Assembly: GCA_051362555.1 (NCBI GenBank) | Contig: CM120647.1 | Location: 19,816,651 to 19,880,650, forward strand | Length of the DNA: 64,000 nt | Direction of reading: 5' to 3' | Source of the DNA: Lingula anatina | Taxonomy: Eukaryota > Animalia > Brachiopoda | The notes under the pieces: generated by a model | What the model saw: the letters and a program-made list of their open reading frames with translations, nothing else | The model's database searches: none | What the model was told of the DNA's origin: nothing | In this document: one piece after another, positions 1 through 52,509 of the stretch | Layout: each line of letters begins with the position of its first letter | Numbering within the stretch: the first letter of the stretch is position 1 | Program-made: the position numbers and the translations under genes

Positions 1-290
1 TTTATCACTTCCAAGAAGTGCAATAACAGTGCCCTTAATACAGTGCCTCATTCAAGACGGGGTTTTCAAAAGAAGAATTGTTGACCAATTTGTTCATTAC
101 AGTGACAAAATCGTTTTTATTTATCTCAATAAAAACGCCTGCAGTGCGATCTCTGTGATAATTAAAGCATGTAGACTACTGATGCACTTATTACAACCGC
201 TTTTTAATCACTTTAAAAATAAGACTAGATTTTCATACAAAGATACAGTTTAGAACCGCCGATTCAAAAATTACACGGCAAAGCAGGTAA
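1..290 (-). promoter_or_regulatory. Upstream region of a further C/D-like paralog lying left of the window
   Basis: tcacttccaagaagtgc..gtgcctcattcaagacggggttttcaaaagaa..gtttagaaccg matches 17804-18085 and 23123-23360, which lie ~105-390 bp upstream of the C and D start codons. Confidence 0.7.
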
Positions 291-2264
291 ATCCAGAATA
301 TAATGACAATAATAATAATTTATTGATCATAACAAGCTCTCTAAACTACAGTTTTACATGTACATAAGTTCGCACATAAGCTTAAATAAGTATAACTTCT
401 TTAGATCATTATAACATCAAAATGCATATAAGCTAACTACGTGAGACATATATCTCACAATAGTTAGGCACAATCTTATAATACTGGATATAGTATTATT
501 TGCAATATGCATTTGTTACTTTGACATAACTGACAGACTGTAGGCCCTATAAACTTGGTCACTACTGATGCACTTGCATGACACGAGAATTTGTATTATT
601 TTGCTATCATCACCAGTGCCTGATAGTCCAGAGAATCCTGACAGGGAATATATACACCACCCAGCAAACGATAATACTGATGATAATAATAATGCACTGA
701 GACATTATAATAACACAAAGAACTTAGGCCTACTAGAGAGCTTTCAGCTTCTTACAAAGACAGAAGAGGAGAGAAGAGAGCGATTTTTTTTAGTATAAGC
801 CCTTTTATACCGGTACAAGTTTGGCTAGTAGGCCTACACGTTCGCCAATCAAAGTAAATTATACAATGAACCGTCCTACCTGTAAGAGAGTGGTATCACG
901 CAACGTTACAGGAAGAGGTTCCAACTAGCACACCGGACTGTACTTTACTTACAGAGGCATCTGCCGGTAACAATACAAAACAATCTCAACTAACACAACA
1001 CAGGTACTGTATAGGTGCACTTAGAAAGCTTTTTATTCTGAGTCAGGAGAGATGGTACTGGCCCCATTCTTCCTTGCAATTTTCGCCATCACACCCTATC
1101 TATCTACACGGACCCTCTTTGTCATTGCATCCTCTACACAGAAATTATTGTTGTTGTCACCCTTACCCTGGTGTCCCATTACTATTGTGCTTCACGTAAC
1201 TTTACATGTACTGTATATGGCCTGTATGACGTATGTGACAGACACTTAACTTTGTCTTAGCAATGGAACAAATACACATGTTAATCAGAAATGTTTTCGT
1301 GTAGTTTTGTTTGTTGCGGTGGGTCTAAAGATCGCATTGGCATGGAGGTGGGGGACTGGAGGCCATATCTGACCTTCAGATGACCTGCTCAAAAGTTTAA
1401 AGGACCGATACAGATGGCTATATTGCATAACGTTAAATGGATTTTCTCTGAAACTTTGCCTATTTTCTCCTGAACCCCAAGGCAAAGTAAGTACCTCACA
1501 CAAAACAGTGGAGAAAATAACGATCAAATGATAAGTTTTTAAAATCACTTAAGGAAAAAAAGCGCAGCATTTTTTTGTCTCAACTTTTGACAAATTTTAC
1601 GTAAAATACAGAAATAAATAGATATTTAAAAGTATTTTTTTTAAATTTGATACCGAGGTATGAAGGTTAAATGATTATTTACTGTAATAAAAAAGATAAT
1701 AGTTATAAATGCTTTTATATCAAATTTGGTTTCACCATTTCATTACATGAGGTTTTATAAAAAATAAGCAATACAGACACTACTCTGGGATACTTTACGC
1801 ATTACAGGAAGTCAACCTCTTATTTATTTATTATTTATTTATTTATTTATTTATTTATATTTTGTAATTCTAAATTGACTCTGATTAATAATTTCACTTT
1901 ATTCTCACAAAATAGTGCTCTCCTATGTAGATAAGAATAGGAGATAAACTGATAATCATAAATATTAATAGGAATTACATGAACTGCATCATTCTAACAA
2001 TGAAGGTTAAGAGCAGTAATTGCAGATGTAATTTCAAGACTCCCCTTCGATGATGTGTGGGGACTAATGCTATATCAACCATAACGTACGGTTTTTACTT
2101 TTTTAACTTTTCAACTTTTTAACACGATTTAAAATTTTCTATTGACTCGGGAGTCTGGGCGCAGGAGGTCGATTTTGTTTCACGTGTTTGTGAAACTCAC
2201 ATTGTCTTTAACACTCTGGCTCTGCATTTTCAGCACCGACTTTTCAATCTTGCTGGGCATTATT

Positions 2265-4003
2265 TTATAGTAATCCCACCCTTTCTTCATTCTGTTGGTA
2301 GTTTCCCCTCTTCACTTTAGGCAAGCACAACCTAATTTTTACCAGGAGTTCATCTAGATATTTTTCCATTTCATTTCGAGCAAGTGCGTTCCTTTCTGCG
2401 GGCCACCTGAGTTTTACGGTAGGCTTACAAAACGTGCCGTCCATTAAGTCAAGGATCAATTTATTTGTTTCATCCTTTTTAAATTTATCTCGTTTAATTT
2501 TCTGGAGGATGATTGCAACGATTTTCAACTTTCCAGCATTTACCTGGGTTTGTGCCACTGCCAAAATGTCTTTGTGTTTCGGTGTAAAATAATTCTCGGA
2601 GACGAGCATGATGAACAGTCTACTTTGCCTTACTATTTTATCTAAGCTGTCTAAAATTGAACCTGAAGTAAGAAAAAAGAAATTATGCTAATTTAGTTAT
2701 GTTTACTAATTAACACCGATTAAGGTGGTTGGAGGTCTGCACATTTTCATCCATGTAAGTAGGACTGTGTGAAATCAGATCATTATTTGTTTAAAGCTCA
2801 TCGAAAAAAGTTAAACTTTTGTGTTAAGTAGGAAATGTTTACAGTGCGTTTACGATGGCAACGACATAAGTACAATGTAAAACACCAGCAAATTACCTGA
2901 AGACCACAATGAACTTTTTAGTATAATTAAAATAATTTAATCGAAGAAAAAATATAATGTGTTAACACAGATGTAACTACATCTCTTTACCCCCAACGTT
3001 ATCAGTCTGCTGTACCACTTTGTAATCATCTTTTAGGCGTTGAACAAGCTCCTGTACGCATTCTTTTGCATCTTCCTCTGGCCTTTCGTCCTCAGTCTCA
3101 CAAAAAGAAATGACCACGTCATTCACATATGAATCTGTCGAAATAAATAAGGAAAACAATAGTAACAAATAATCATCATTTTCCATTTGTCTAATTTTGA
3201 ATTTTTTTAAAAAATAAAACTAATTTTCTAAATATATATATTTTAGAAAAGGGTCCTTCTCCAAGTAAAAGTGAAATAAGTATTTCGATTCTTTACTATT
3301 CCAATATTAACTTAAATAAATCCGTGAATAGTCTTAGTAATACATGTAGTATACGCGAACATCAAATATCACTATTGCAGTTTTTTTGGGTAAAGAGGCA
3401 AACTGCTGTAAAATAACATAACAAACAACATTGCCTTTTGCTTCTGCAGCTTCCGTGAATTGGTTCCACTTCAGAACGTAGAGGTTGTTAGGGCGCTTCA
3501 GACACAACACTCGAAGACCGGTTGCAGTCAGAATAACCAGTGTCAAGGTTATAACAGGTACTATGATGACCCACGGGAGGTACAACTTGACAATAGCTGC
3601 AATGGTAGATGACATTAAACGAATGATACATGATGACAAACGTAACATAATGTGCTTTATCCAATGACTGAAAAAAAATAATACAGCTGATTCATCAATT
3701 ATAATACGAACAGATTGTTATAACATATAATTCCACATTTTACAATTATAGTCTAACAATTATAAAATACATTAGTGACATATTCAGTCCGATACTGAAG
3801 GTACGTACTCATGCATAAAACAGCTAGTAGTCGACATCTGAATATTGGAACCATGCGACATTGAATCTGTTTTGCCGAACACTTATAATATACATGTATT
3901 TGCTCGAACAATTGCATTTGCATTCAGTGTTTTGGCAGTTAGTATACATAAGTAGATCACTTTGTTTATTTCTCTTATCAGTGAATTGCAGGTGATCCTC
4001 TCT

Positions 4004-4044
<41 letters not shown>

Positions 4045-4379
4045 CGTGTGTGTGTGTTTGAGTGTGTGTGTGTGTCACCACCTACCAGTCGGCAACGGGT
4101 TAACATTCTTCACTTCAGCATTACACCTGTCTTCATCACTACAGTAGCATTCAACACCTTGAAAATCTTCAAACTTTCCACTTCTAAAGTAACTAAAAAA
4201 CCTCTCGAATCCTATCATTCTCAAATCCGTCGAGCCCTTTCTCGCGTGATCCCCAGTCATGTACCGACATCCGTCCCCCTCCGGCCGCTTGGCGGCACAG
4301 AACCGTAAGCTATAGGCTACCGTATGGCTCTGCAATCATTCAAATGATACATTTAACATAATAATAGAAAGAAGAACAA

Positions 4380-4425
<46 letters not shown>

Positions 4426-6204
4426 TATATTGAGTCTAAAACCAAAATTTGTTCCCGAAGATGACCAATGCAAATGCAACGTGATATATACATAATAAAA
4501 AGGCTAGTAAAAGAAATATAGGGTATACCTACGTGATATTTGTCACGTTTTGAGATTGTGTCATTCAACATGTCCAGTTATGTTTTTTACATACAAAAAG
4601 GACAAAATGTCAAAACCCCTAACCCTACCCTTGTTTACGGTATTTCTTAAGAGAAAGTAATTTGAATATCTCGTGATTAACCCACCTCCTGTTTATTTAT
4701 ATGTCGAAAAGAAAATCCCATCTGTACACAGCCTTCACTGCACTCGTTATTGTTATTGTTGTTGTTGTTGTTGTTATTTTGAGGTCTAAATTCTACATTT
4801 TTCCAGTAGACTTAACCAGAACAATGCAACATGAATAAATAAAAATAAAAAAATAGTAAAAGAAATATAGTTTATAGCTACATGACATATATCACCTCAT
4901 TTAAAAGGTATATGTACACTGTATATGCTTTACCTGCAAAAGAGACAAAATGTCAAGACCCCCTTAACCCCACCCCACCCACCTCCTTGGTTACAGTTTG
5001 TTCATAATCGTTTGCAATTCCAGTATTTCGTGTTAAAGGACCCGTTCACATAATAACCATCAGTCAATGTAGATCGATCTAATTCTGCGTGTACTCTTGC
5101 TTAGAGCAATCGGCTAAACTGATGACAAACCTCTTGGTTCTAGAGTGCTCATGTAATCATCGGCTTTTGTGTTTTTTACCCAACACCATTAGGAGGCATA
5201 GGGCCTATGTCATTCAGTGCAGCTGATTGCGCTCAACAAGTCTCCGCAGAGTTGAATCGAACTAGTTAGACCGACGGTGGCTATGGGGTTGGGGCCTATC
5301 TCACCTCCTGTTTATTTATATGTCGAAAAGAAAACCCCATCTGTACACAGCCTTCACTGCACTCGGCGGTCGTGTTCACGGTCGTGTGGCTGCCATTACA
5401 GCGCACGTCTCCTAGTGGGCCCAACACACTAACGCCATCTATCTCAAGGTATTTGCAGTCGATGCACAGAATGCCGAGAACTGAAATTAAGTGTTGTGTT
5501 GATAGCTAATCTCCAAAGCATTTGTGGTATTGATTTGTTTATAATTCTTTTTTTTCTTCTCTCTGCCTGTCAGTCTGTCTGCCTTATCATTAGCAACTAC
5601 AAAATTAGCAATTAATCCACTCATTTCCAAGACCAAAAACCAATATGATAAAAAAATAAATAAAAAGGAAAAATAGACGATATAGAATCAAATGTGTTTG
5701 TTTAGTCTATAAGTCCTCTTTATGGGACAAAAATATTATATAGGACTTCTTTGTTTTTAAAGAATTACAATATGTGCAAAAGACCAGGACAATTACCAGG
5801 ACAATATACATATGTGTGTGTATGTGTGTGTGTATGTTTGTGTGTGTATGTGTGTGTGCGTGTGTGTGTGCGTGTGCCCCCTTTCCACAGCCCACAGCAA
5901 AAAACTAGCTCCTGGGCAGTACTTTTTGGTAGCTTAAAATCTAACATTTTATTTGTGTTTCACTCCTTCGTTTACTAGTTACTAAAAGACAAAAATAATG
6001 GACTTAATACCGATACGTTTTTGTTCCAGATAGACTGAATTTTTTTACATATAAAGGTATCTTTGCTACAATTTCACATGTTTAAGACATGATCAGATGT
6101 TAACGAGACGTGACCGTTTTGTTTGTGACCACATTAGAGATAACCTTACCTCTGCGGTTCAATGTGACGAGAAGAAATACTGCAACCGAACACAGCTGCC
6201 GCAT
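2265..6204 (-). CDS. Receptor A: signal peptide + Ly6/uPAR (LU) domain + TM + TIR, ~392 aa, 6 exons (6150-6204, 5305-5480, 4086-4329, 3435-3596, 2991-3134, 2265-2662)
   Basis: Exons join in frame (1179 nt). Signal MRQLCSVAVFLLVTLN. LU domain with 10 Cys (CIDC..C..CSEGC..C..C..CYC..CN). TM PWVIIVPVITLTLVILTATGL. TIR motifs YVNDVVISF, RQSRLFIMLVSENYF, KIVAIIL, LRWP. One inferred GC donor at 3433-3434. Confidence 0.85.
4433..4746 (-). repeat. Intronic duplication in receptor A, including a partial copy of exon 2 (4685-4746)
   Basis: 4685-4746 is nearly identical to 5305-5366; 4433-4640 resembles 4781-4995. Confidence 0.8.
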
Positions 6205-6818
6205 GCTGGATATTTTCAGGTGCCTTTAGCTGAACAAGCCTCAGAATGAATAAAGTAGGACACATTTTTACACCGCATCAATGCGCCTGTAAAACCCGCT
6301 TTTGTAGGACAGTGGTTTACATGACAAATAAACTTGAGGGTCTTTCAAACGCGACCCCGTGTGATGTTATTGTGTTTTTTAGCGATGTGAAAAGATCTAA
6401 ATATTCTCCTTTGTTGATTTTGGCTATTATTTATGCTTGACGAGGTGTATTTACATAAGATTACGGCATGCCGCGTCTATATTGAACATTTGAACTGGGT
6501 CGGGTATCATGCCACTACCCATGCTGCAGACTGCTGGTTGAGAACAATGGTTTTGACTTTAAGAGTCCGGAAAATAAATACAAAGCTTCACACAATATTT
6601 CGCCATACCATATGATGCTTATTCATTGAAATCTATTCCAATAACGTACATATATAAGGTATACTTCTTACGTAAGTGATACATGTATATGTCAATGGCA
6701 GTAATATAGGAAATGTTTTTCTGCACGATTTTATGCAACCTCGATTTTTAGTTCCACATACAGCCAGTTTGGTGCAGACGTAGACAAAGATACATCAATA
6801 TCGCTCGTTGCCATGAAT

Positions 6819-8268
6819 CTAGACATCTAATTCAATTTGTTCTTGGTGCAGACCGTCTCCGCCAGCTCTTTCAGCTTGGTTTTCAAGATTTGGCATGAAG
6901 TCCGCGATGTCATTAAAAAACTTATCCATAGCGTCTTCATTAGGTTTTTCAAAACACGGCTGTTTCATCAGTTTTCTTACAGAGGCAAAGTCTTTATTTA
7001 GTTTCAAATTGCGATCAAAATCTTTCAAAATTATTGGAATTATTCTGATTTTGTTGTCGTTTAGCTTTTTCCTGACTCTTCCACATAGGTCATTCACGCC
7101 ATCCATATCAAAATACTCCGGCGAAACGATCATGATGAATCGACTGCTGGTTTCAATGGCAATGTCTTCCTTTTCTGGAAATACAACATATAGATTTCAT
7201 GGTCTACTCTGATATTCACTACACATATACAGTGTCTGTAGATAAAGAATAATGGAATAATGTTTTAAAACTGCTCGTTTAAACCGAAAAAATGGAAGAT
7301 TTTCAACAATAAAAACACAGCGTACATAAGGACTTTTCACCTTATGGCCCCAAATAGTTAAATCTGTTAACTACACAAGTTCAGAATTTATATCTAAGCC
7401 TATACTATTGGAGCTACTTTTGAATATGAAATGGCACATACGTCTTGCAATATCCCCGACCCTTTCGTCAGGTTTATATATTCTAAAACCGCGGCGCTCC
7501 AACTCTGGTATAAGTCTTCTTTTTACAAACGCTCTGTCCTCTGGTACGGACTCATTGTACGAAATAAAGGCATGGAAGTAGAATCCTAGAAAATAGAGAA
7601 GCTTGTTATAATGCATGACGGAACTTAATCACAAAGTTGCTACTATATACAGCAGCTTAATCGCATCACCCAGACGGAAGTTGAGTACTTCTTGCAGTCT
7701 GGAATGGTCTGTAAGCAGTTCACCATCTTTACTATCTCCTTTTCAGTCTTGACAACAATATTTTAACTTCCATAAATGTTCGGAAAAAGAGGCGACATAT
7801 GAAAAGCGTATATGACTCTATTTCTCCACTGAGAAATTCAACACGTTGGGGTAGCATACATTACCACATTTTTTTTTTTTTTGTATTGTAGAATGCATGC
7901 CTCGTGGCTGGATCTCGAATTGCCTTAACCGTTACACTCGTTGATTCTTACCTTTTATTTCACCGGTTTCTTTCCATTCATCTGAAAGAGTTGAGGCAAC
8001 GAACATGAACATACATGTACATATATAAGGCTTCTGAACATGGATATTGGACGATAATTTTTTTTATTAAAAATACCATTATGGATACGAAACATATGAC
8101 GATGCCAGATGTTTTATCCAGACAACATTGTTTTTGTTGAAAAATAGAAAATAAATAATCTGAAAACAGTTGTTCATCTTATTAATTAAGTTTTGTTCAG
8201 TTTTAACTTCAATAATTCGACTTAACGACTTTGATGAAATCTAAATGAGAATAATGTTTATTTCTTTA

Positions 8269-8304
<36 letters not shown>

Positions 8305-11253
8305 CTGATTCACCCAACTGCTGGGAAAGCATTCGTTACAATACAAAATGCAAGTCACGATGGTCTTAAGGCGAGGGGTTTACTGTTAATGGATGCCAGT
8401 CATTACCTTTGGGGTCTCCTTCCTTCAAAACATCTGGAACAAATCAAGCAGAGATTATTGTACATAATAATAATAATAATAATAAATTCAGTAACGGCAT
8501 ATTCCTTTTAACATATCAATAAGCCTTGCAGGATATTTAATTTTATTGAAAAATCTGAAGTTAAACAATCTTATAAAAGAACAAACAATACATATTGAAC
8601 ATTTACTGAAACCTCGATTGAATTAATCGTTGTAATCGTCCAAATTGAAAACTTCTAGAATACATTTTAGATACAGATGGTGGAAATGACAACGAGACAT
8701 TCGCGCTGTTTTCTTGAAATCGTAATGATTATACACATGCATAGTTAGAAAATAAAATAACCGAACAACAACAGTCAAACGCTAATTTCTCACTCACATT
8801 GAAATCATAGGTTGCAAATCTTGTAGTTGGCCTGGCCTTAGGGTGATAAAATCGTAATAAACTTACTATCGCCTTCAAAATGTCTCGATCTTGCATCCAG
8901 ATTTGCTGTAAGAATTTTGCCTTTCCGTAGTGCCCAGATAAAAACTATTGCTGCTGAAACTATGATTACGATGCCCACGGAAACACAAGGAATGATGATA
9001 TTCCACGGAGGTCGCTCCCTGGGGATGGCTGCAATTAATGGTCAATAAATATTGATTTACAAAGTAAATTGAAGTCATACATATTAACGTGTGATCACAA
9101 ACCATATCATTGTAATATGTGTTATTATGTAGGATCATTTGTTAAATTAACCATTTTGCAAAGGAGTTTCTGCATCAACATACAGTACATACGTGTGAAA
9201 ATACCAACAATTTAGTATATTTCGCTATTTAATTTCATTACATTTCATAAAGACGGTAGTTAAAATAATTTGATGGCAGTGAATGATTAGCATACGTGGT
9301 ACCGCAAGGTTCCTTTGACAAAGATTTCAAACAAATGTGATGTTGTGTTTTTTTTTTCGTCTCATCTTCCTTTCATTTCTTTCATTATTGCCTGTACTTA
9401 AAAAAATACTGAAATTATACAGAAACTATAGCCGATAGTAACTGTCAACTGTGATCAAATAAAACCAAAAAAATACCCGCTTTGGAAAAACACGCAATGC
9501 CTACCCGTTGGGAGTGGGCCCAAATTACTGATATCTTTATTACACATATCACCGTCATTGCAGAAGCATTCTTTTCCCTCGATGTCCACGACAGTGAAAA
9601 ACGGAAAAATAGGTAGCAGTTGATGTACGTCCGAAACAGCCTTGTGACTCAGTTCCTGAAACAACGAACTCTGCGCATCATTCGACATGTCCCGGCATCC
9701 GGGGGTCACCAGGAGCTCTACTGCGCAGGACCGGAAGTGAATTGTCATGTTCACAGCTTTGTTTACCTAAAAAAACGGCAATGTATTACAATTACATTTT
9801 TAATTCTTTTCTCTCTTTACTGCCTTAGCTAAAATTGGGTGTTTCTTCAAATATCAGTGTTACATTAAGGATATCCTTAACCTTTGCCAATAACTCCGTA
9901 TTTACTGCCTTTTATACTTTCTTTTGTGTAAAAGATAAAAAGTCAGTGTTCAGTGATTAAATTAATTAACATTCTCACACGTTTCACCTTAAGGGGGACG
10001 TCATAATTGCGATTTTGAAAACACAGTTAAATATGAAATACTTTCATAATAAAGAGAGCCATTCCGACTTTCTGTCCTCGCTAGCTTTCATCATAACAGG
10101 CCTAAATATAGAATAGATATATTTACCGATTTGTATACAGTTATCATAGTAACTTGGAACTGGATGCATGCTTCGCTGCAATTTCTGGTCACATTTATAG
10201 CGGTCGGGCTGTCCATGCAGCGGGGATCAGCTTGTAAAGCTCGGTTCATAAGGGCTATGGCACTCGTCTCATTACCCTCCAGATACATACAATCTACGCA
10301 CTGTAGTGCTCCTTGAAATACAAGATAATGAAGTAATATTTTAACCAATTAATTAAATGAGAAAACCGGCATAATGTGTAAAATCATAGCTTGTGGATAA
10401 TATAACAAATCTTACACGTGCTGGCTTTAACAGAAAAAGCTTCATCATGGTCACCGCCTTGATCTTGTATAAGTAAATAAATAAATTACGCTGAAAACGC
10501 AACTATAAAGATCAGTACGGCTGTACATGTAGGCCTATGCTACTGTAGATAAGTGCCCGAACTTTTGGCTTGTGTGTTTTCTTCAGGGACTTCTTCGGGG
10601 ATTATTCTGATTTTAGTCTCTGAAAAACGCACACAAGTCGACAACTTGGGCTTTAGCAGAAGTACGTAACAGCAATATCATTTCAGATTCTCTCAGTAGG
10701 CCTACTACATGTAACTTGGTTTCTTATGACATTAACAGCGGTCCTTTAATACGATTCGTCTTATTCGCCCAGGGAAATATCAAAATAGCCGTAATTTAAA
10801 ATAATCAGTATATCCGTTGCATGACTATGAGTGTCATAACTTACATGACTGTGTGGCAAACAATGCACTGATACATTTTCTACAGGCAGCACTCACACAC
10901 ACTAGGCTTACACCCCTTTCCCCGAGATAAGATCGACCTACTTTAGATCGACCTAACTCCCTGGGGGTTCACTCTAAATAGCTGTCAGCCGGGCGGACAC
11001 GAAAGTTAATTACCCCCTTACAGCTTGTAGTAGGCGGGACGGACATTTAAGTCGGATTATCTGAAAGTAATCTAGTGAGACTCCCGCGGGGATAGATCGA
11101 TCTAAAATCTATGGGAATAGAGCCTTAGTATCAAAACTGCTAGTTTTCAATTTAAGTAGTTTCGTGAAGAAGTTCCTCACGTTTTTACCAGTACTTACCA
11201 ACATTCGGAATAACTACAAAGGATAAAAAAGCAAAGACCTGCCATAAGTTCAT
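6819..11253 (-). CDS. Receptor B: signal peptide + LU domain + TM + TIR, ~406 aa, 8 exons (11199-11253, 10127-10311, 9505-9766, 8867-9028, 8407-8433, 7952-7981, 7442-7585, 6819-7174)
   Basis: All introns GT-AG and in frame (1221 nt). Signal MNLWQVFAFLSFVVIP. LU CVDC..C..CSEAC..C..C..CFC..CN. TM PWNIIIPCVSVGIVIIVSAAIVFIWAL followed by RK. TIR FHAFISY..FVKRRLIPELERRGFRIY..AIETSSRFIMIVSPEYF..IIPIIL. Exon sizes 55/162/144 equal those of receptor A. The two micro-exons are less certain. Confidence 0.88.
10911..11124. mobile_element. MITE, PIF/Harbinger-like, copy 1 (intron 1 of receptor B)
   Basis: Homologous to 30305-30522; terminal agatcga(c/t)cta inverted motifs; TTA on both sides. Confidence 0.65.
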
Positions 11254-23773: not shown

Positions 23774-25425
23774 AATAATAATAATAATTTATTTTTCTAT
23801 GGCGCATTCCATTAAAAATCTCAATGCGCCTTACAACATTCACTTAAAAGAGCTAAATAACACAATACTAATATAAGAACACATTACAATTTTAAAGGAC
23901 TAAGAACTAATTTAAAGAACCAATTATTCATATTCTAAAATGATAAGAACCTAAAGTGACAACATTTAAAATTAATCATAAAATTACAGTACACCTTATT
24001 AAAAACTAAAATGAACTATATGATATTTACTGATAGGCTATTCTAAAAATATGAGTTTTCAAAAGCTTTTTAAAAGTATTTATGTCACCTGCTGCTCGTA
24101 TTTCAGAGGGTAAGGTGTTCCAAACTTTGGGTGCATATATCATAAATGCCCTTTCACCGTAAAATTTACCAGCTTTTTTCTCTAAGACACTGTGTTCTAA
24201 AAGTAAATGGCTAAAAGTTGAAGACCTGGTAACTCTTCCATGCTGATGTTGCTTCATAAGTTCTGAGATATAAAGTGGTTTATTCTCAGTGACTGCTTTA
24301 AAAATGACACATAAAATTTTAAATAAAATTCTCTCTCTTACTGGAAGCCAGTGAAGTTCCATCAAAACAGGTGTTATATGCTCTCGGCTGTTCCATCCCA
24401 TTTTAGTTACCAGCCTAGCTGCAGAATTTTGAATTAATTGAAGTTTGTTCAGATGATTTTTGCCTAAACCATATAAGAGACTGTTGCAATAATCAAGCTT
24501 AGAAGTAATGAAAGCATGGACTAGTTTTTCAGTTGAAGTTTTGTCCAGTAAGTCACGTATCTTACTAATTCGCCAAAGTGAGTATGATGCCGATTTGCAA
24601 ATTTCAGAGATCCGTCTATCCATAGTTGCATACTGATCAAAGGTGACACCTAAATCTTTCACATAGCTAGATGGATTGATGTTGACACCACCGATACAAA
24701 GATCAGATTTCATTGCATTTCCCCTGTCTGGCTTAGACCTTGATGTAAACCATATTAGTTCAGTTTTTCCATCATTTAGTGCTAGCATGTTTGTTTTCAT
24801 CCAATTTCGGATCTCAACTAGACAAGTTTCTATTGAGGTGATAGCCATGGAGCGATTACTTTCACTTGTGACATAAATTTGAGTGTCATCAGCAAAAATG
24901 ACAGTGTTGAGACCATGTTTAACTATAATGTCTTCTACTGGTAGCATATACAATGAAAAGAGCAATGGACCTAGCACAGACCCCTGAGGGACACCATACT
25001 CTACAATAGTGGGCTCTGATAGCAACGACTCAATTGACACCTTTTGTGTTCAATCTTTTAGATATGAGGTTAACCAATTAAGTGCTAAATCATTTACTCC
25101 AAATCGGTACTGTAGTCTGTGCAGAAGTATGTTGTGGTCAATGGTGTCGAATGCAGCAGACAGATCTAAAAGGACTAAAATAACATCTTTTTGTTTGTCT
25201 AAAGAAAGCATGATGTCATTATGAACCCTTAGGGGAGCTGTTTCTGTGCTATGTCCTTCTCTATAAGCTGATTGAAACTTGCCATATAGACTGTTTTGAG
25301 CTAGATAGTTATTCAGTTGTATACATGCCATTTTCTCAAGAAACTTCCCTAAGAAGGGCAAGTTTGATATTGGTCGATAATTTTTAAACACTTGTTTGCA
25401 CAGGCCTTGTTTTTTTTTAACAAGG
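23774..25425 (-). mobile_element. 5'-truncated LINE (L2/CR1 group) with reverse transcriptase remnant
   Basis: NYRPISNL, LDLSAAFDTIDH, GVPQGSVLGPLLF, FADD, LHWLPV motifs. One in-frame TGA at 25050-25052 splits the ORF. 3' hairpin GGCGCATT..AATGCGCC (23801-23830) and (TTA)n tail. GACAT on both flanks. Confidence 0.93.
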
Positions 25426-26509
25426 GACATGGAAATTCAAGGGTGGAGGGGGGGGGGGGGGTGATGCTGTGACGTATCGATTAAAGTAACAAAAATAGCA
25501 CAGCTTTGCATCGGTGCTAATGGACGGTGAGGTAAGCGTTTTAGGATACCAAAATGTTCTTGCGTCCATCATTAACCGGACCAATGAAATGCATGTACCC
25601 TAGCAAACTGATTACTTTATTACTGTACATGGTTCCACGTGCGTGCAGTGAATATTGTTATAATTTTTCTTTTTTACTTAATTTGTAGGATGGACAATTT
25701 CAGTCCTATAACTTGATGAATCTCTTTTTTGTCAGAATTTGATACCCCCTACTCCTACTAGAAACATTGCTAAAATAATCGTTTTTTTTTTTTCTTGAAT
25801 TCACGTTCTCTTCGGTTCCTTACCCCGAGTTTGTATTGAGTGGTAGATTGCTTGCGCCCTTCACACGGAACTCACATACCCTACCTGGTATCCCTCCAAA
25901 GATATAATATAGGAGCATTAATTTTGAAAAGGTAGATGATAGGCATTAAAAATCGATTTCTGAAAATAATTTCAAAAAGGAAGACAATGGAGCACACATG
26001 GTTTCGTACTAATAGGGTGAACAACGCCAACATAAAAAATTTAATAAATGAAAATACTTTTGTTAATAATAATAATAAAAATAATAATTTTTGTTTAAAA
26101 AAATCCCATTATGCTCACTTCTAAAATTTTAACCAAGTTAAAAAACAAAGTTACGTAGTAAATTCAAAGTAGTACTCTCAGTTTGGCAGTAATAGGGACT
26201 GATGTGTTGAACGGCAACTACACGGACAGACACGGTACCTGTGCATGAATTTGTTTGCAGACACTATTAGATAGGTATTCATTAAATTCCTTCTATTTAT
26301 TATTATTTTTTGGCTTAGTAAGTATCAGTATTACAATAAAAGAGCAGTATTCATTCCATACATGTACTACGCAAAATAAATATAAAAACCATGTGTCTTT
26401 ACTACAGTAGCAAGTGTTCTTGCTATTGATTCAGTAGTTTACACGTAGATATATAAAAAAATACATAAAAATATTAAGAAAACAAATAACTAAACATTTC
26501 TTCCCAAAG

Positions 26510-27693
26510 TTAAAGATCATCATCGCCCATATCCATCCTCCCGGGCTCCGCCGTTTCCTCGTCCCGACATTTAGCGTTCTGAAGTTCTCTCCGTATCTCC
26601 GGCGTTATCTGGTGGTGTACATGTACACGCAACAGTTCAAATAGTCCCTCTTTCTGTTCGCTAGAAACATCCTGTTTGTATCTCTGTACAAATGTCAAGA
26701 AACACTGGTGCCAGAGGACCGGAAGTTCTCGCTGATCTGTCTTGAACCTGGTGTAGAAATTAAAGAACGTGTACTTATTTAAGAAAGTTGCTTCTTGGGC
26801 TGCAAGTTCAGGGCAATGGGTAGCCACCATGATAGCTTAAAATGAGGCTGACGGCACTGCGTCGTTTGAAAACAAGACTGAATTTAAAAAACGTGCGTGA
26901 ACTTCCATTCCTGATTAAAACCCCCTTTTACGTGAAAATTGCAATTACTAAATTATGTATCATTGGTTCAAAATATCAATCTTGCACCTCTTTTTCTTCT
27001 TTTTAACACCATTTATTTTCTCATATAAAACCTCTTACATTACCTTAAGAAATGAAAAACCATCGCATCCACCACTCTGTAAGGCAGGGCGTACTTCTTA
27101 TCAAGAAGAGTCCTTAGAAAAATACTGTTGGCGCCATTGTAGTCCATTTCGGCAATTTTCAAGATGGCGGCGGCGGAGTGAAGCATAGGGATAGAGTGCT
27201 TTCCCAACACACTGGACAGAATTATAGCTTCACGAAGAGTGCAGTTACCAGCCTTTATGTAACACAAAATAATAAATTCTACTATCTTACATACATATGT
27301 TTCTTTATATAATCATTTTCATTAATTTATATGCCTTCTAATATGTCTATAACAAATGTAAAATCCAAACCTTGTTTTAGAATTGATTAAAATCATTATT
27401 TAATATTATAATAAGTGTGTTTTTTTTCTTTTCAATACAGGAAACGTGGGCAGTTTGAGATCTTCAGTCGAAATCTTCATGTAAATCTTTTAATAAAAGC
27501 TAATATAGGCTCTTGCAAAAAAAGTTGGAAATATTAAGTAAAATTTCATCTTCACCTCGCACAATGGTAATAAGATCCCCTTGAAAAATGCTGCTGGCTT
27601 GAAAAGAGCTTTCTTCAATGCCTGGTAATAAAGCAATTATATCAAGTAACACTTCTCTGGTTTTAAATGTATTCTTCATTCACAATAAAAAAG

Positions 27694-27740
<47 letters not shown>

Positions 27741-29694
27741 ATTCACATAAATCCTACTAAATCTGATATTTCATCTTAAGTGTGAAACAATAATGAGCTT
27801 ACATCTCCACTTTTGGTTATAATGAAAATTGGTAAAACAGGCTTTTCTTGTCACTAGCATAACGGTGGTAAAAAAAGTTAATAATTTCTTTAGACATTAA
27901 CATGACTATTTTCACCTGAGGCACATAAACGAGTCAGTCACAAGTTGTAGGTTATGATGAAAGGTTGCACCATTAGATTCAGGGACACAAAAAATTGTTT
28001 TGTCTCTTTGAAAACAATTTACTTTTTTATAACACAGAAATCATTTCACATTCTGTCATATTCTTCAACTTGCATTTCAATATGACATCATTCCCAAGTC
28101 CTACCATATAAAGATGGAAATTCAGCCGCTTGTACTCTGCAATATCGTCCCGTATCCTTGGCAACAGGACCAGATTGAAGAACCTCTGAGCCATCTTAGC
28201 GTTGAGATTGGAGGCAAAGATTCTGGTGGCCTGGTACATGGCAGCTGCAGACCACGTCTCTGGCTCAGTGACATATAGGATCTGTTTGGAGAAGAAATTA
28301 TCATAATATGAGAAAATGTCACACACTTGATTTTGGGATGTGAGAAGAAAATGTAAATCCAAATGGATCAGTAGCCTTACAAGTAGGGGTTTAAGGATGC
28401 TTAAATCTGGGAACTGCCATAAAGTAGATTTAAATCAGAATAAAATGTCTGATATTACCGATGGTAAGGTAAATGGTGAATTTAAATGATGAATTGGCAA
28501 ACTGTTAATAAGTGCCAGAAAAACTATTTTTTTCTTGATTTCTTTTTCTAGACAGTTATTTTTTTTCATACAACCTACAACCTCAGTTGTTTTTTTTTCG
28601 CTTAGCCAAATCACCGTTTTTTGTCAATTTGTTATCCAAATGGTATCAATTTGACTAAAATGAGTCAAATCAAGCCCTTATTGTTTAGCCAAGTTAAGTC
28701 ATTTTTAGCATTTGGCTAAATTGGCGAGTGTTAGCGCTACCCCAGCTACATCATTTAATTGTGTTAGGTGTGCTTGTGATCAGTAAAAGGTGATTGTGTT
28801 TGTTGTGATGATGTCACAGTCACATCACATTACCTGCTCCCAGTTAGCCAGTGCTGGGACAATCTTGAAAGCTTTGGGCAGTTTACCACTCCTGTATCTC
28901 TGTAACACCTGTTTGATTTGTTTGTACATGTTCACCACTCTCTCATCTAGCTCTTGTAAATTAACGCTGGCATTATCTGGAAAATATGAAAAAAAAAACA
29001 ATGTTTTATAATTCACCAAGGGCCCTTGATGCACACATATTGGCTTTACTATGCTTTCAAAAGATTTTTTTATGTGGAAGTTACTGGATGTTTATTTATT
29101 GGCTACACTGCAGTTTGTTTCTTCTACTTGAAATTTTATAAGCATTTTATTTATTTATTTTATTGGGTATAAAATACTGAAATGAAGTGGATCACATTAG
29201 AGCTATTAGACCTGCTGTAGCCTGGCCTGCTCCATTAGACCTGCAGAGGTCTAGCAATAAAACCAGAGCTGTGAACTAATCCATTTAATGGCAAGTGCTG
29301 TAGCAGGGACACCATCAGCAGATTAGTTGGCTCTGCTTTCATGTAGGGTCCCCCATATTTGATCCGTAGATCAGTAAATTGGAGGATCATCTGTTGTGAA
29401 TGCCCCCAGACAGTGTCAACATGCATGTTCCACATGCTAGTATAATATAAAATATCATAATCCATAAATGCATATTGTGCTAGGTAGTATTGTTATAATA
29501 TTAGACAAAACTGTGTTGAATGAAACCAGAAAATCCATAGCTCTATTTACCTGACATCTTGGACTGGACTTCTGTCTTTTTCTCAGTGATCTTCTCCTGA
29601 ATTATGTCTGCCAGAGTTCTCTTCACTGGAGGGTTACTGGACATAAACATCTCTAGAGCTCTCTCATCTTCCTGGTCAACTTCCTACCAATTGC

Positions 29695-29752
<58 letters not shown>

Positions 29753-31263
29753 TATTACTACTACTACTACTACTAATAATAATAATATTTATCTATAGTC
29801 TAAAATCCATATATAAAATGTTCAATAGACTTAACATGGGTAAAATGAACAGAATCAGATGACTAAAATAAATTTTAGGTGGTTAAAATATAAGTTATGA
29901 ACTAAAGATGTGAACTAAAATGTAATTGAATTGATATTGATTTACTGCATATGTAAAATTAATTTAAAATGTTCAGTAGACTTTACCTAAAAAAGAGACA
30001 AGTACTAAAAAAGTCAGGCCCCGGTTTCACCTTAAGTTAGGTTCCCTGGCTAAAAACTTTATTACTAACATGACAAGTCACATGAACACAGTACAATGAC
30101 TTACCACGTGTTCATACTCTGCCTCATTCCCAGACAAACTGTCGTCATCATCTTCAGAATCAGAGTCTGCCTTTGATGGCCCTGAACCCAGTGATACGCT
30201 TTTAGGCTTCTCTTTCTTTCGTCTAATTTGAGGGACCAGACATTACAAATACACATATCAAATTGATATAAAGAAGAGTAAGAATATAGCATATAGTTAA
30301 CTTAGGGTGCTTTCCCAGAGATTTAGATCGATCTAAAGATTAAGTTTTAGATCGACCTAACTCCCTGGGGGTTAACGCAGTCAGCCGAGCGGGCACCATA
30401 GTTAATTACCCCCTTACAGCTTTTAGTAGGCGGGACAGACGCTTAAGCCGGCCAAGCTGACAGTAATCTAGTGAGACTTCCCACTGGGATAGATCGATCT
30501 AAAAATCTATGGAAATGGGGTGTTAGACTTTATCCCAATAAATTAGCAGGCACAGACCAAACAATTTCTTACAGAACATTGTCTCAATGGTAATACAAGT
30601 ACTTTACTCTGAAGTTGGCTGTACTTTGAGAAACTACTAAGGCATTGTTTTTTTTTTTTTTTTTTTTTTTTTTGTTATTATTTAATATAATATTTGTTTT
30701 AATGTATAATAATAACTATTATTATTATAATTTAAGAAATAGGAATGTTAAGGGCAGAAAATATTACCTGACTCCATATTCCTCCTCCATTTCCTCCTGC
30801 TGTAGCCTGGCCTGCTCCAAAATCTTCTTAGATAATTTGTCATCTACAAACTAAACGAAATGCCCCTAAATTGTCTGTTCATTCGTAATTAAATATCTTC
30901 AGACGTTCTGCGCTGTCTTAACTGTCACGAGAAACAAATACGGCTATGACTATATCACATATAATATCAACTTTAACTCACTGTGCTAGAGCTAGAATTA
31001 GTCCCAATTACTATACAACTAAGTAACAAAATACAGATCACATGTAGTCTATGTGTACAAGCATTTAACTTAGATTTTACATGTGTGTACTTAGCACTGG
31101 TCTCACATTACATTACACGGGTTACCTCGTCATCTTTGTCTTTTCTGTCGCGTTTCTTCTCTCGTCCTGGCTCTCTAACCGACTTATCCTCCGTCATTTG
31201 ATCACCGAGAGGAGCATTTCGCCCTTCTGCTCTGCCAAATCTGGCTTTTTTGCTCTTCCCCAT
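26510..31263 (-). CDS. BYSL: Bystin (Enp1 homolog, 40S biogenesis factor), ~434 aa, 9 exons (31126-31263, 30768-30850, 30105-30222, 29551-29683, 28834-28976, 28105-28281, 27556-27621, 27044-27252, 26510-26747)
   Basis: [63 protein letters not shown] motifs; in-frame splicing (1305 nt). Confidence 0.96.
30305..30522. mobile_element. MITE, PIF/Harbinger-like, copy 2 (BYSL intron 2)
   Basis: Homologous to 10911-11124; TTA flanks; ttagatcgatcta inverted ends. Confidence 0.65.
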
Positions 31264-31784: not shown

Positions 31785-33928
31785 ATGGATGCCCCGAGCT
31801 TTAAGGAAGTCGTCACCCTCTTACTGAAAGTGATCTGGGAGTTCATCCACGCCGGGTTCCGCCTTATTGTCCCGTATCCAAAGAAGAATATCAGCGGGGA
31901 GATCGTCTTGGTGACGGGATCTGCTCACGGCATAGGGAGAGAACTAGCCTTGAGCTTCGCCCGCTACGGGGCCACCTTGGTGCTGTGGGACGTAAACAAG
32001 GTACATATTTAACTTGGTTTAATAGTTTGCCGTATAGTGTATTGTATGGAACTTTCTGGGGTGTGTAGCATAGTACATCAATCATGGGCATATAACTTTA
32101 TTAGTGTGTATGTGGGTGTGTGTAGATGTGGGGGGGGGGGGGGGGGGCGCAGGGGGAGAACTGGAGACACGTGCAGTGAGTAGAAGCTGGACTTATAAAT
32201 AGTAGCAGTGCATGTACGTGATAGGCTACTGACTGAGCAATGTTATAAAACTGTAATCATGTTTTTGTATGAGAATAAAAATACCGGTCATTTCATGCAC
32301 ATTAATTGTGCCCTGGATAATTAAACTGCGGTTGCTACATCCTGGTTATGCAATTAAGCGATTTAAACTTTTTGAAAAAAAAAACTTGTAGGAAAAAACG
32401 ACAATCACACAGACCTATTAATGTTATAAATTAATTTGCACCAATTAATTATTATCAGGATGGAAATGAGGCTACAGCTGATGAGGTGCGTAAACAAGGA
32501 GGCACGGCTCACGCGTATCTGTGTGACGTCAGCAACACTGATGACGTAAAGCGTGTTGCTGAGAGGGTGAGGAGGGACGTGGGAGACGTCACAATACTGG
32601 TGAACAATGCAGGTATATCAGTAGACTTACTACTTCATATTCTAATAAATATTATATAATCAGGCTTCATTCAAGAAGAACATTTTATTACTATTTTTTA
32701 CAAAAATTATTTTGAACAGCATTGCATCAGTTCAAAATGTTTTAATTATTAAATGAGTTTTCTCACTAAGAATACGTTTATGGTGATTAAGGTGCAATGG
32801 TTTCATTTTATTTTGCTTCATTGTATTTTGTGTGTGTGATTTAAAAGAGGTTACTGTGAATGTTTGAAAACCTAACAATTCACTATAAAATGTCAGACAT
32901 ACACTGTATTTCTATTACATTCTAATTGCACCTTTTTATTTATTTATTTATTTATTTATTTTTTACACAAGACAATAAATTTACAGAAGAGCTATCTTTG
33001 ACTGATGAGAAAATTAAAATGCATGTACTGTGGAATGTCAGAAAAATAATACAGTTTAGCATAAAAGTTCTTATATATATCTACATTTCAGGAATACTGC
33101 ATGGGTTAGATCTCCTCCAACTAACTGATCAACAAATTAGAAAGACTATAGAGATTAACACTATGGCACATTTTTGGGTTGGTGATAGCCTCTCTTTTGT
33201 AAAAACTTAAATTTCTGCTCTCTCTTTTCAGCCTGATTTTTCTGTGTTTGCTCTAGAATTTTGTTTTCTTTTAACAGAAAAAAATGTATTTTTATTAAAG
33301 TGAATAGTGGACTGGCTATTTTTATATTTTGTATTTCTTTTGTATTTGCTTGAGACTGAGTTATTCAATTAAAATTTTTATGAAAAAAATTTGAAATTTT
33401 AAAGGTTTCCTTGTTCTGTTATTTTCCTTTGAAAAACGGCTTTATATTTTTTTACAATGTCTCATGTTGCTTGCAGTCTATGGTGGTGAAGTTTTAAGTT
33501 GATTTTGCTGAAAACAAAAACTTTTAACTTTGTTTTATTTTAATTTATTTGTACCACTAGGCATGTCAGTTTGACTTTTCACTGATTTGTTACAAAACAA
33601 TTTGTTTTTTTGAAGTTACCTGGTTTACATTGTCTTATGATAATTAATTATGTTTTAACAAAGCAACATTGAATATTTTTGTATTTTTCAGACTGTGAGG
33701 GAATTTCTACCAAAAATGCTTGAATTTGACCATGGTCACATAGTGACTATATCATCAATGTCTGGGTTTTATGGGGCGTCTTACTTAGTGGATTACAGGT
33801 GGGTCCAGTTGGGTTTTTTTCTTTCTTTCTTTCTTTCTTTCTTTATTTATTTATTCTGGAAACACCTGGATATGGTAACACTTGCCAGTTTCTTTCTTTC
33901 CACCTCTCTCAAACACACAAAAATACAC

Positions 33929-33963
<35 letters not shown>

Positions 33964-35454
33964 CTCTTTCTTTACCTAGAGGGAGATGAAGAAAGGGTTA
34001 TAAAAGCTGAAACCAAAAAACTCTGCATATCTTCTTGGTGTCACTAATACTGCTAATAATTTCTGCATTGCTTTTCCTTCACTGTAGCACCTCAAAGTAT
34101 GCCGTCCGAGGTTTCACAGAGGCCTTGGCGGAGGAGATCAGAAGATTGGGGAAGACTCAAATAAAAACAACGACAGTGTTCCCCATGTTTGTGGACACAG
34201 GACTCGTAACAGGAATTGATCAGAGGTGAGTACATATAGTATATTAATAAATATAAAATGAACAGAGAAATGGATAGGTGGATAATAGATTTCTAAATCA
34301 GCAGGTGACTAAACAAATTAATTAATAAAAGATGAATTATTTTATCTGTAAAATAAATTGATAGATCAGCTTGATTGAACAATAAATTGTAAATAAAAAG
34401 ATAAATAGATGAGTAGATGAGTAAAAGTTGAATACTAGGAAAGAGGGCAAAATGTTTTTCTCCTTGAAATATTCTAAATCTGTAAGAGAAAGAGAAAGTT
34501 GAGTATTTTGCTGCATTTTACATTTGACTAAAAGGGTGGTTTTTGTATTCATGGGTCAAGAACTACACCAGTATGTATTAACTTTCATATACAGTATAAG
34601 TATGTATGTATATATATAGGTATGTATGTATATATAACTTGTTATAAATTGTTCTTTAATTCAGGTTTGAAAAACAATTAACCCCACAGCAAGTGGCTAA
34701 AGCCACAGTCAGCGGAGTTCTGAGAAACAGATTACACGTCTTTGTGCCTAGAAAATGTGACTTCACTGCAAGATTAAAAATGTAAGTATTGTGTTGTTAT
34801 AATAATATATATTATAATTATATTTTTATTGTTATTATCTACCAAATAGATTATTTTTCTGTCAGTTGGTTTGTTAGGAACTGACCTTACTCAAAACATT
34901 CTGGACTGATTCTCATACAAGTGTCTGGATGGGTCAGAAATAGGGTAACTTTAAATAAAAATATTTTTATGATCCCCTTATTAATAAATTAGTTAAGTAA
35001 TCAAAATTGAGTTGCCTTGTTGGAGCTTTGTGCTCGCTGTTTTTTATTATTGTTCATTTTATTGCTTTTTAAAATATTTTTCATTAGTTTGTCCTTGGAA
35101 GGCACGTGTAGCTCACTTGAGTTAAAATTGTGATAGATGTCAGCCTTCTTGATCTGTAAAGAAGTTAAAGATAAGGCCAAGTTAGGTGGTATTTTAGACA
35201 AAAAAAAAGAAAAAACAATTCTGAGACAAGTGGATGAACTTATTTTCTCATGAAAAAGTGTAGAATTTTAGAAACCCACATTCTCAGTGTCAGTTTTTTC
35301 TTTGTCAAAATTTGACTTTTAAATTTAAAAAATGTACTTGTACACATTTAACATATTTGTTTTTTATTCCAGGTTCTTACCTACAAAAGTTATTAATTTA
35401 CTCATTGATTTTGGAAACAGCAAAATTCAGCTGCAAGAAAAAAAGTCAAAATGA
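31785..35454 (+). CDS. Short-chain dehydrogenase/reductase, SDR16C type (RDH10/SDR16C5/HSD17B11-like), ~299 aa, 7 exons (31785-32000, 32459-32612, 33092-33177, 33692-33798, 34088-34225, 34665-34781, 35373-35454)
   Basis: N-terminal hydrophobic anchor, TGSAHGIG, NNAG, AHFWT..FLPKM, catalytic YSTSK; C-terminal KKSK; in frame (900 nt). Confidence 0.93.
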
Positions 35455-37842: not shown

Positions 37843-38243
37843 ATGACGACTTTTAATAGGATTTTCGTGTTGGCCAGACAGTACTTTCTTTTATTTCTTG
37901 ATTGGTTTTGCCAGACTTTCTTAGGCAGGCGACTCATCCCGCTTACCGAGGAGAGTCTGTTAAAAAAATTCCCTCCAGAAGACCGTCGTCTCTTGCTGTC
38001 GGAAACTCTAACTCGTCGCTGGTGGTACGAAGGATTCACCATACTTTTGAAATGTTTTCGTGAAGATGAGACGTGTACCTTGGCCGGGAGGCAGGTTATT
38101 GAAACAAGATGGACAGAGATTCTCCGAAATCGCTTGGCAATATCAAAGCACTTGGCATCTGTTGACTTGACCAAGGTACGTGTGCATGTGACGTACTGTT
38201 ATATGTTTATATATATTGATCGTTTACGTGTGTGAAACGGTAT

Positions 38244-38282
<39 letters not shown>

Positions 38283-40846: not shown

Positions 40847-40900
<54 letters not shown>

Positions 40901-45100: not shown

Positions 45101-45344
45101 ATATGCGCACCTTGTACATCATCTACACCTAGCATTGCCATGCTGGAAACAGCAGAGGACCACTATGACCCCTGTGGCGCGCGGTTCCTGTCATGCGCAC
45201 TTCGTATTTCCGCAAAAGATGAAAAAGGTTAATTTTTATGCAAAAGGTAATTTGCTAGGACCCACGAGAGCCCACATTCGTTCTCGCTCATTCTCGCGAC
45301 ATCCCGAATCAAGGGCCCGGTCGTTGTCGTTGTGGACTACTGAC

Positions 45345-45450
45345 GTGCCTCATTCGGGACTCGAACTCGTGACTTTGTGTTACCATGGTTGATGACGCTT
45401 TGGTTTCTTCATTTGCATCCAAGCACGCTACCGACTGCGCCGTGACTGAC
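45345..45450 (-). pseudogene. tRNA-like element (A-box/B-box); second copy at 46145-46250
   Basis: Minus strand GGCGCAGTCGGTAGCG ... GAGTTCGA(G/A)TCCC..TGAGGCA; no intact acceptor stem. Confidence 0.45.
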
Positions 45451-46339
45451 CCACCCACCCTCCCCACGTACAAGTTTCCTCTTATAGTAACCAATCGCAA
45501 TTTTTAAAATTGAATTCTGGCAAAAAAATGAGATTTCATCAACTAGGGCTCGAACTAGCGCACAAGTTACTGCCTGTGTCCTAGGCAGCAGAGTTACCAC
45601 GGAGCCACGGCAGCTACGTTGACATGAGATGATCAGATGGAAACTTTCAACCTTGTCATGGAGACGACCAGATTGGATGTATATGTATATATCTGCTATC
45701 CCTATCGATAATCCGGGTGCCGTATTTCATCCCACGCAACCCCAGTCCACGACCATGGTTTATCATGAACGGGAAAGTTTATGATGTACAGGTGACCGTC
45801 TTTGAAAACCCGACACGGAGCTCGGAGATTCCTTTATATTAGATTGATTTTGGCTTTACCTATGATATTAAAGAGTACAACGGGATCAAAAGCGGTTAAG
45901 AACAGGCGTGATTCACTTTTAGCTAGTCCTTTAGAAGAGGGTATAATAAAAAAAATACAACTGTGTAATTACTGGTGCGATTTTCATTTAAGAAATAAAT
46001 TGGGAATTTTGAGTAAAACATGATTGGTAAATAATTTCGCCGAGATGATATCGTTTTTCCGCTGAACACGGTAAACAGGTGGTATGCATGACGTGATGTT
46101 ATACCGTATCAGGGGCCCGGTGGTTGTCGTTGTGGACTACTGACGTGCCTCATCCGGGATTCGAACTCGTGACTTTGTGTTACCATGGTTGATGACGCTT
46201 TGGTTTCTTCATTTGCATCCAAGCACGCTACCGACTGCGCCGTGACTGACCAGCCCACCCTCCCTACGTACAAGTTTCCTCTTAAATTAACCAATCGCAA
46301 TTTTTAAAATTGAATTCTGGCAAAAAAAAAAATGACATT

Positions 46340-49891: not shown

Positions 49892-49934
<43 letters not shown>

Positions 49935-52470: not shown

Positions 52471-52509
<39 letters not shown>

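Follow-up and report, generated by a model that had tools for sequence, protein, structure and literature searches.

Tandem genes of the brachiopod Lingula anatina join a predicted three-finger ectodomain to a transmembrane helix and a TIR domain

Two neighbouring genes on the minus strand of a 64,000-nucleotide (nt) stretch of the Lingula anatina genome, here called the window, combine a signal peptide, a ten-cysteine Ly6/uPAR (LU) ectodomain, a transmembrane (TM) helix and a TIR domain. Animal TIR receptors are defined by leucine-rich repeat (LRR) or immunoglobulin (Ig) ectodomains, and signalling LU ectodomains occur on receptor kinases and some G protein-coupled receptors. LU-TM-TIR is a real architecture and apparently an undescribed one. 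RNA reads and RefSeq proteins establish it for the type to which the first gene belongs (gene A, 11253-6819), and for the present copy of the second (gene B, 6204-2265) we infer it from sequence. The best reading, to which we assign a probability of about 0.55, is that these proteins are LU-TM-TIR receptors that would be clustered by a ligand and would recruit a TIR adaptor.

Gene A comprises eight exons (55, 185, 262, 162, 27, 30, 144 and 356 nt) separated exclusively by GT-AG introns, and encodes 406 amino acids (aa). Exon 1 (11199..11253) encodes the signal peptide and is followed by a phase-1 intron. The LU domain is divided between exon 2 (10127..10311; first half, Cys 1-5) and exon 3 (9505..9766; second half, Cys 6-10 and an Asn), which ends in phase 1. 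Exon 4 (8867..9028) carries a single hydrophobic helix, with a Kyte-Doolittle peak of 2.9 in a 19-residue window, and a basic stop-transfer stretch. Two micro-exons (exon 5, 8407..8433; exon 6, 7952..7981) encode a cytoplasmic linker, exon 7 (7442..7585) encodes the TIR domain from box 1 to the BB loop, and exon 8 (6819..7174) encodes the remaining TIR domain and a tail to the stop codon. The protein is 96.6% identical to the RefSeq 'uncharacterized' protein XP_013418738.1 without a single gap when both micro-exons are included; the last exon alone is 97% identical. Two more A-type RefSeq proteins share 86% and 77% identity with gene A and are therefore paralogs. The full architecture is present in RefSeq models P0001-P0003 (A type) and P0009 (a B-type paralog).

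RNA was covered in seven of nine raw runs from the same species (X1-X4, X7-X9), and joints were listed from three reads up. Exon 1 is joined to exon 2 in 3 reads, and its letters were also found on loose read ends at 10312 (10+3 reads). The joint between the two LU exons was observed in 14 reads and the joint from exon 3 to the TM exon in 10 reads, each from three of four runs, and the joint 8433/8867 in 3 reads. Four reads from two of four runs pass from the TM exon through the 27-nt micro-exon to the first TIR exon. Micro-exon 6 is missing in all four reads that span TM to TIR, and is either skipped or not part of that paralog; exon 8 has read depth. Among the 26 best-supported RNA differences listed in the A exons, 13 are synonymous, compared with an expected 21% (p 0.001; p 0.054 assuming 33%). 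The in-frame order of signal peptide, ten-Cys LU domain, TM helix and TIR domain, which a first-pass annotation had proposed for both genes, is thus borne out for gene A by sequence, RNA and RefSeq; gene B is in frame, with a putative TM-TIR splice that depends on a GC donor and was not among the RNA joints listed.

Both ectodomains end in C-x-C-x5-C-N. In gene A, cysteines at positions 23, 26, 50, 63, 67, 94, 104, 147, 149 and 155 are followed by Asn156, and in gene B ten cysteines at 24-146 are followed by Asn147. An LU domain is described by ten cysteines with an Asn after the tenth, and its gene by a signal exon and two domain exons with phase-1 flanks, the intron between the domain exons falling at the loop-2 tip (PMC6600238). 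Intron phases of 1-0-1 after the signal and LU exons fit this plan, and are common to A, B and the first domain of two nearby two-LU genes, C and D. In the RefSeq counterpart of gene B (P0007), this inner intron falls at residue 87/88, where predicted strands 73-84 and 87-98 meet in a turn. An AlphaFold model of this B-type ectodomain, calculated from a 14-row alignment, has a predicted local distance difference test score (pLDDT) of 70-87 across most of the domain and lower values in an insert of loop 3. When the model was compared with 48,161 solved chains in VIA-align, the best 29 matches were all LU/three-finger proteins, and the first unrelated row had a Z of 3.4. TEX101 and CD177 (Z 7.0) head the list, followed by C4.4A and GPIHBP1; the best match has a root-mean-square deviation of 3.8 over 88 aligned residues. 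A Z of 7 lies below the program's own caution line of 8, and the three-finger case rests on the uniformity of the match list. For an A-type model, seven of the ten rows listed from the ESM Atlas carry QVR, Ly-6, UPAR_LY6 or Activin_recp (template-modelling score 0.45-0.53); of the other three, two are unrelated and one, which scores best of all (0.63), has no name. The Atlas feature scores of 0.78 and 0.82 are under its bar of 0.9 and were given no weight. QVR was found below the Pfam cut-off in seven of 11 relatives (best E 1.8e-4). Pfam scans of A- and B-type proteins revealed no LRR and no Ig domain, and the fold search returned three-finger proteins. A three-finger fold is accordingly what the models predict. 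A full-length AlphaFold model (8-row alignment) had a pLDDT of 36 and was set aside.

The three A-type proteins all match Pfam TIR_2, at 39.9, 50.8 and 37.2 bits (cut-off 28). The closest solved relatives of the A-type TIR are those of TLR15, TLR6, TLR1 and TLR10, with E from 5e-8 (TLR15) to 1e-5, and the TIRs of the interleukin-1 receptor (IL-1R) family score far more weakly (SIGIRR, E 0.05; IL18RAP, E 0.17). Box 1 is kept and aligns with that of TLR6 and TLR1. A SEFIR domain was not matched in Pfam. The NADase activity of TIR domains is tied to a Glu (PMC7075850). In alignments of A-type proteins the corresponding position, after strand C, is occupied by Gln or Leu, and a pairwise alignment of gene B contains no Glu in the matching stretch. 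On the missing Glu we reject an NADase role of the SARM1, plant or bacterial type; the TIR domain is most likely a scaffold, as judged from sequence. In vertebrate IL-1R genes a phase-1 intron is located at the BB loop. The phase-1 BB-loop intron observed here may hint at an IL-1R-like origin of the TM-TIR module; the sequence favours TLR-type TIRs.

Gene B comprises six exons (55, 176, 244, 162, 144 and 398 nt) and encodes 392 aa. Exon 1 (6150..6204), which matches RefSeq P0007-P0009, encodes the signal peptide; exon 2 (5305..5480) and exon 3 (4086..4329) encode the first and second halves of the LU domain, the latter with a RefSeq counterpart modelled as three-finger. Exon 4 (3435..3596) carries the TM helix (Kyte-Doolittle peak 2.5, same window) and ends at the putative GC donor. 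Exon 5 (2991..3134) encodes a degenerate TIR stretch from box 1 to the BB loop and exon 6 (2265..2662) the remaining TIR to the stop codon. The GC, not GT, donor at 3435 is in phase and has the top score among 21 GT/GC candidates in the stretch; with positions +1/+2 ignored it reaches 4.2, within the range of 1.4-8.3 spanned by 19 GT donors in the same genes. XP_013418759.1 (P0007) reads through this site to a stop codon without a TIR domain. The window and RefSeq disagree in the frame of the read-through stretch, as would suit an intron. Because of the GC donor, the lack of a listed RNA joint and the TIR-less RefSeq counterpart, the architecture of this B copy is a predicted one. Five candidate micro-exons in intron 4 had weak donors and were dropped. 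The final 60 nt (20 codons) of exon 2 recur letter for letter in intron 2, at 4686-4745; GT follows this copy, which belongs to a local duplication of 240 nt.

Exon 5 of gene B alone has no Pfam match, and exon 6 alone matches Pfam TIR with E 5e-4 (20.4 bits against a cut-off of 21.3). On a profile of the A-type TIR, the TIR region of gene B scores 27 bits, compared with a shuffle maximum of 8.9; for the B type the scores are 27-28 bits and the shuffle maxima 8-9. By this comparison, the B TIR is degenerate yet homologous to the A TIR. The B-type TIR matched no TIR structure among PDB sequences. Three of the four RNA differences listed in the last exon are synonymous. Loose read ends point to two further B-type paralogs that splice into the last exon, one of which retains the BB-loop Pro-Gly (6 reads). 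P0009, at 454 aa, is a B-type LU-TM-TIR protein in which the juxtamembrane stretch is rich in Cys. In P0008 and P0009 this cytoplasmic stretch, which gene B does not have, directly follows the TM helix and might undergo palmitoylation. When longer proteins were searched through a word index for the last exon of gene B, none of 601 candidates was retained even though P0009 exists, a measure of the limited sensitivity of the search.

The A and B proteins are 27% identical (blastp E 4e-38), in agreement with the marked divergence reported in the first-pass annotation, and their exons of 55, 162 and 144 nt are indeed identical in length, with the 162 nt of gene B depending on the GC donor at 3435. 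Compared exon by exon, both LU exons are homologous with z ~17, the TM exon with z 4.9 and the TIR exons with z 3.1 (B exon 5 against A exon 7) and 7.2; homology of the signal exons is not supported in this comparison. Among paralogs, 129-132 of 137-141 residues of the LU domain are identical (91-96%), and the second TIR exon is 64-83% identical. This is the reverse of the pattern described for Toll-like receptors (TLRs) (PMC10279657). A near-constant ectodomain with a variable TIR makes a single fixed, probably host-made protein ligand likelier than varied microbial patterns, and the sequences thus point to one fixed ligand with varied outputs. A- and B-type genes occur together on RefSeq contigs of three lengths (two possibly haplotypes), so that their products may pair in the manner of IL-1R family chains.

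We infer surface location, ligand binding, A/B pairing, the scaffold role and the output of the following mechanism. The A/B family would have been founded when a TM-TIR module acquired, by splicing, the first of the two LU modules of a gene nearby. A and B would be single-pass receptors at the cell surface with finger loops that bind an extracellular protein, and an A-type chain and a B-type chain may pair as receptor and co-receptor, like those of the IL-1R family. The ligand would cluster the chains, and their TIR domains, serving as scaffold and not as enzyme, would recruit a TIR adaptor. MyD88, or else an adaptor peculiar to the lineage, would pass the signal on to NF-kB or MAP kinases. 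A bolder extension, which we put forward only tentatively, is that these proteins form a third class of animal TIR receptor next to the LRR and Ig types. An A/B heterodimer would recognise a brachiopod cytokine-like protein, with the two-LU neighbours as its anchored decoys or co-receptors, and LU cassettes of phase 1 would still be swapping among TIR tails in the array, as in the C-type LU found spliced to a B-type TM exon.

The ectodomain likely derives from the first LU domain of a Lingula family of two-LU proteins of glycosylphosphatidylinositol (GPI) type, with genes C and D as the likely donor family. Trees were built from 25 LU domains and, after removal of five near-duplicates and of the longest branch, from 19. 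Both receptor ectodomains nest there among the first domains of the two-LU family, in a clade with support of 98/100. A profile of the ectodomain compared with 1.84 billion representatives matched 13 proteins, among them ten from Lingula and one each from Mytilus and Diadema. Eight of the ten Lingula proteins have two LU domains, seven of these with a hydrophobic C-terminus. Only the A-type protein among the 13 carries a TIR domain, and the cluster of the B-type match contains P0009. With the receptor alignment as query, a word-index search retained four of 4,676 candidates, all from Lingula, and neither search returned an LU-TM-TIR protein outside this genus. P0011, P0012 and P0014-P0017, long two-LU proteins of 315-397 aa, make up a Lingula family that has no name and falls below every Pfam LU cut-off. 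Owing to the common 1-0-1 phases, splicing of the first three exons of C or D to the TM exon would preserve the reading frame. In run X2, four reads splice the end of a C-type LU exon (16450/21264-like) in frame to the B-type TM exon (3596), with 4 mismatches in 30 relative to both C and D. Such reads may represent a third receptor type, or long-range splicing past gene A. Matching phases, first-domain kinship and these C-to-B reads make exon shuffling the likely origin; it would have run from a two-LU gene to the receptor, a direction not rooted by an outgroup.

Several observations weigh against the receptor reading. The ectodomains are 128-138 residues long, compared with 60-90 in a typical LU domain; the surplus is located in loops 1 and 3 and erodes the label of a typical LU domain, not the fold. 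Neither ectodomain matched any Pfam family, LU profiles included, and a search of PDB sequences with the ectodomain profile matched nothing, which may be why RefSeq labels these proteins 'uncharacterized'. For the ectodomain model, Foldseek returned nothing at E <=0.001 (best E 0.14). Expression is low: the RNA signal was carried by three runs of one study and was next to none in the other four of the seven. In the read set that gives the LU-TM and TM-TIR joints, no read is at least 99% alike to the window; the reads are therefore alleles or paralogs, and the architecture that they prove is that of the A type and not of this exact copy. The reads list no joint between the two TIR exons for either gene, and no joint of gene B reached the three-read listing. 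Two of the three B-type genes (P0007, P0008) have TIR-less RefSeq models, and P0009 reaches 16.6 bits for TIR_2 (E 0.011) against the cut-off of 28. The box 2 motif RDxxPG, which lies in the BB loop of TLR, IL-1R and MyD88 TIRs (PMC7075850), is kept neither in the A-type alignments nor in gene B, so that canonical MyD88 recruitment is doubtful, and the BB-loop proline is missing in both. In the trees, A and B as sister ectodomains received unstarred support values of 93/89 and 94/86. The constant ectodomains could also stem from gene conversion in a tandem array. As far as the searches reach, the receptor class looks confined to Lingula.

Part of this evidence would be expected if the receptors dampen signalling, with degenerate TIRs that trap adaptors or partners in the manner of SIGIRR, and with B mostly a TIR-less decoy, generated by read-through of the GC donor, in the manner of IL-1R2 or BAMBI. 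The missing box 2 and BB-loop proline, a B TIR below Pfam cut-offs, LU-TM-short-tail proteins in RefSeq and the GC donor itself all fit such a role. Against it, both TIR exons of gene B are open and have good splice sites, the differences in its last exon are mostly synonymous (three of four), the read-through stretch shifts frame as an intron would, and a B-type paralog in the reads retains Pro-Gly. We regard dampening as unlikely, and as the best placed of the alternatives.

A pattern-recognition role in the TLR sense, in which the three-finger domain binds microbial molecules directly, is a less probable alternative. The nearest relatives of the TIR are TLR TIRs, the genes form a tandem, lineage-restricted expansion typical of immune genes, and TLRs are themselves expanded in Lingula, for which 25 are listed (PMC8609888). 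The near-constant paralog ectodomains with diverging TIRs are the opposite of what TLRs exhibit, and the usual partners of LU surfaces are proteins (PMC6600238).

Still more doubtful is a non-immune function as developmental or neural receptors, for instance of TGF-beta-family ligands or ion channels, with the TIR domain as a generic scaffold. The three-finger fold is common to TGF-beta receptor ectodomains and Quiver-type proteins, and relatives match QVR weakly; the nearest sequence relatives, however, are Lingula two-LU proteins and not receptor kinases, the best structural matches are TEX101, CD177 and C4.4A, and a kinase domain is absent. An artefact that reads separate LU and TIR genes as one, of the kind seen in the older model P0005, which wrongly chains neighbouring genes of the cluster, can practically be dismissed, being contradicted for the A type by single reads that cross the LU-TM and TM-TIR joints at GT-AG sites and by the agreement of four RefSeq models with the exon phases.

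By their defining domains, A and B are not TLRs, IL-1Rs or TGF-beta receptors. They share with TLRs the single pass, the cytoplasmic TIR and box 1. A TLR has by definition at least one LRR (PMC8609888), whereas A and B have none and carry instead a predicted three-finger ectodomain of 130-140 aa, a degenerate box 2 and an ectodomain more conserved than the TIR among paralogs. The IL-1R family resembles them in its small disulfide-bonded ectodomain (here predicted), TM helix and TIR, in a possible TIR-less decoy form and in two divergent chain types, which here lie side by side as expected of a receptor and co-receptor. It differs in its Ig domains and in TIRs that score far lower against the A type; IL-1R-type TIRs are described as confined to jawed vertebrates (PMC7075850). 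TGF-beta, activin and BMP receptors (LU-TM-kinase) and BAMBI (LU-TM) likewise have one three-finger ectodomain and a single pass, but the receptors bear a Ser/Thr kinase in place of the TIR, and the ectodomain of A and B probably comes from two-LU GPI-type proteins. With Ly6/uPAR and Quiver-type proteins (multi-LU TEX101, CD177 and C4.4A; the two-LU proteins of Lingula), A and B share the ten cysteines and Asn, exon plan, clustering and predicted fold; they differ in longer loops with a helical insert, and in a TM helix and signalling domain in place of a GPI-type end. TIR-only TM proteins of Hydra and other invertebrates also combine TM and TIR without LRR or Ig (PMC6043800, PMC8609888), whereas A and B carry a predicted folded ten-Cys ectodomain of their own. 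Since this ectodomain has no Pfam match, surveys would file A and B as TIR-only.

Genes of the C-like, A-like and B-like kinds are arrayed in tandem at this locus. Read along the minus strand, as they are transcribed, they follow in the order D (23022-19153), C (17697-14767), A and B, and P0005 places a B-TIR, C and A in that order elsewhere; both orders support the array view. Gene C (five exons, 357 aa; 98.6% identical to XP_013418758.1) encodes a signal peptide, two LU domains, a Ser/Thr stalk and a hydrophobic C-terminus predicted to be of GPI type. Gene D (five exons, 453 aa; 98.9% identical to XP_013418760.1 across 351 aa) duplicates gene C in tandem and has a longer stalk, rich in Thr. 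Window positions 1-300 are 76-84% alike to the regions upstream of C and D, so that a further C-like gene with two LU domains probably follows B, immediately beyond the left edge of the window. A short interspersed repeat at 10907-11130, in intron 1 of gene A, has RNA depth in the hundreds, and a second copy at 30310-30516 is 80% alike. Upstream of the cluster, a stop-interrupted fragment of a reverse transcriptase of long interspersed nuclear element type (Pfam RVT_1) occupies 24027-25436 on the minus strand. Ordinary neighbours were named by Pfam, with outer coordinates set by eye: a bystin gene (26510-31250, minus strand) and, on the plus strand, a short-chain dehydrogenase gene (31785-35405), a sulfotransferase gene (37896-42194) and a Hairy/Orange gene (49798-57142). 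A tandem duplication of ~810 nt with 94% identity lies at 45301-46910, and portions recur at 42343-42582.

A pairing of LU with TIR was not described in the literature searched, which excludes most subscription journals as well as Gerdol 2017 and Gerdol 2018. A 2026 survey of LU architectures in 387 invertebrate genomes reports 101 three-finger proteins in Lingula and, in the portion covered, gives only LU-only and kinase forms for this genus; TIR is nowhere mentioned in its main text (PMC13719153). LU-TIR is likewise not described in the portions covered of PMC8662601, PMC8609888, PMC6043800, PMC4595640 and PMC8195603. The expectation in the first-pass annotation of a distinct TIR receptor class lacking a prior description is therefore supported, with the B splice, the restriction to Lingula and the loss of box 2 as caveats. 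Two findings that could have undone it went the other way: reads and full RefSeq proteins place the LU and TIR exons in the same A-type genes, and the predicted fold is three-finger with an A-type TIR that passes TIR_2.

The status of LU as a truly mobile module was doubted in a 2019 review. At this locus an LU module is joined to a TIR domain, the likely donors are adjoining and the phases are intact, so that the construction of a receptor class can be traced. The reach of the finding is limited, as the class is known from one brachiopod only. If the reading is true, immune signalling would gain a third kind of sensor, and because the A/B ectodomain escapes Pfam, other invertebrate receptors classed as 'TIR-only' may hide folded ectodomains.

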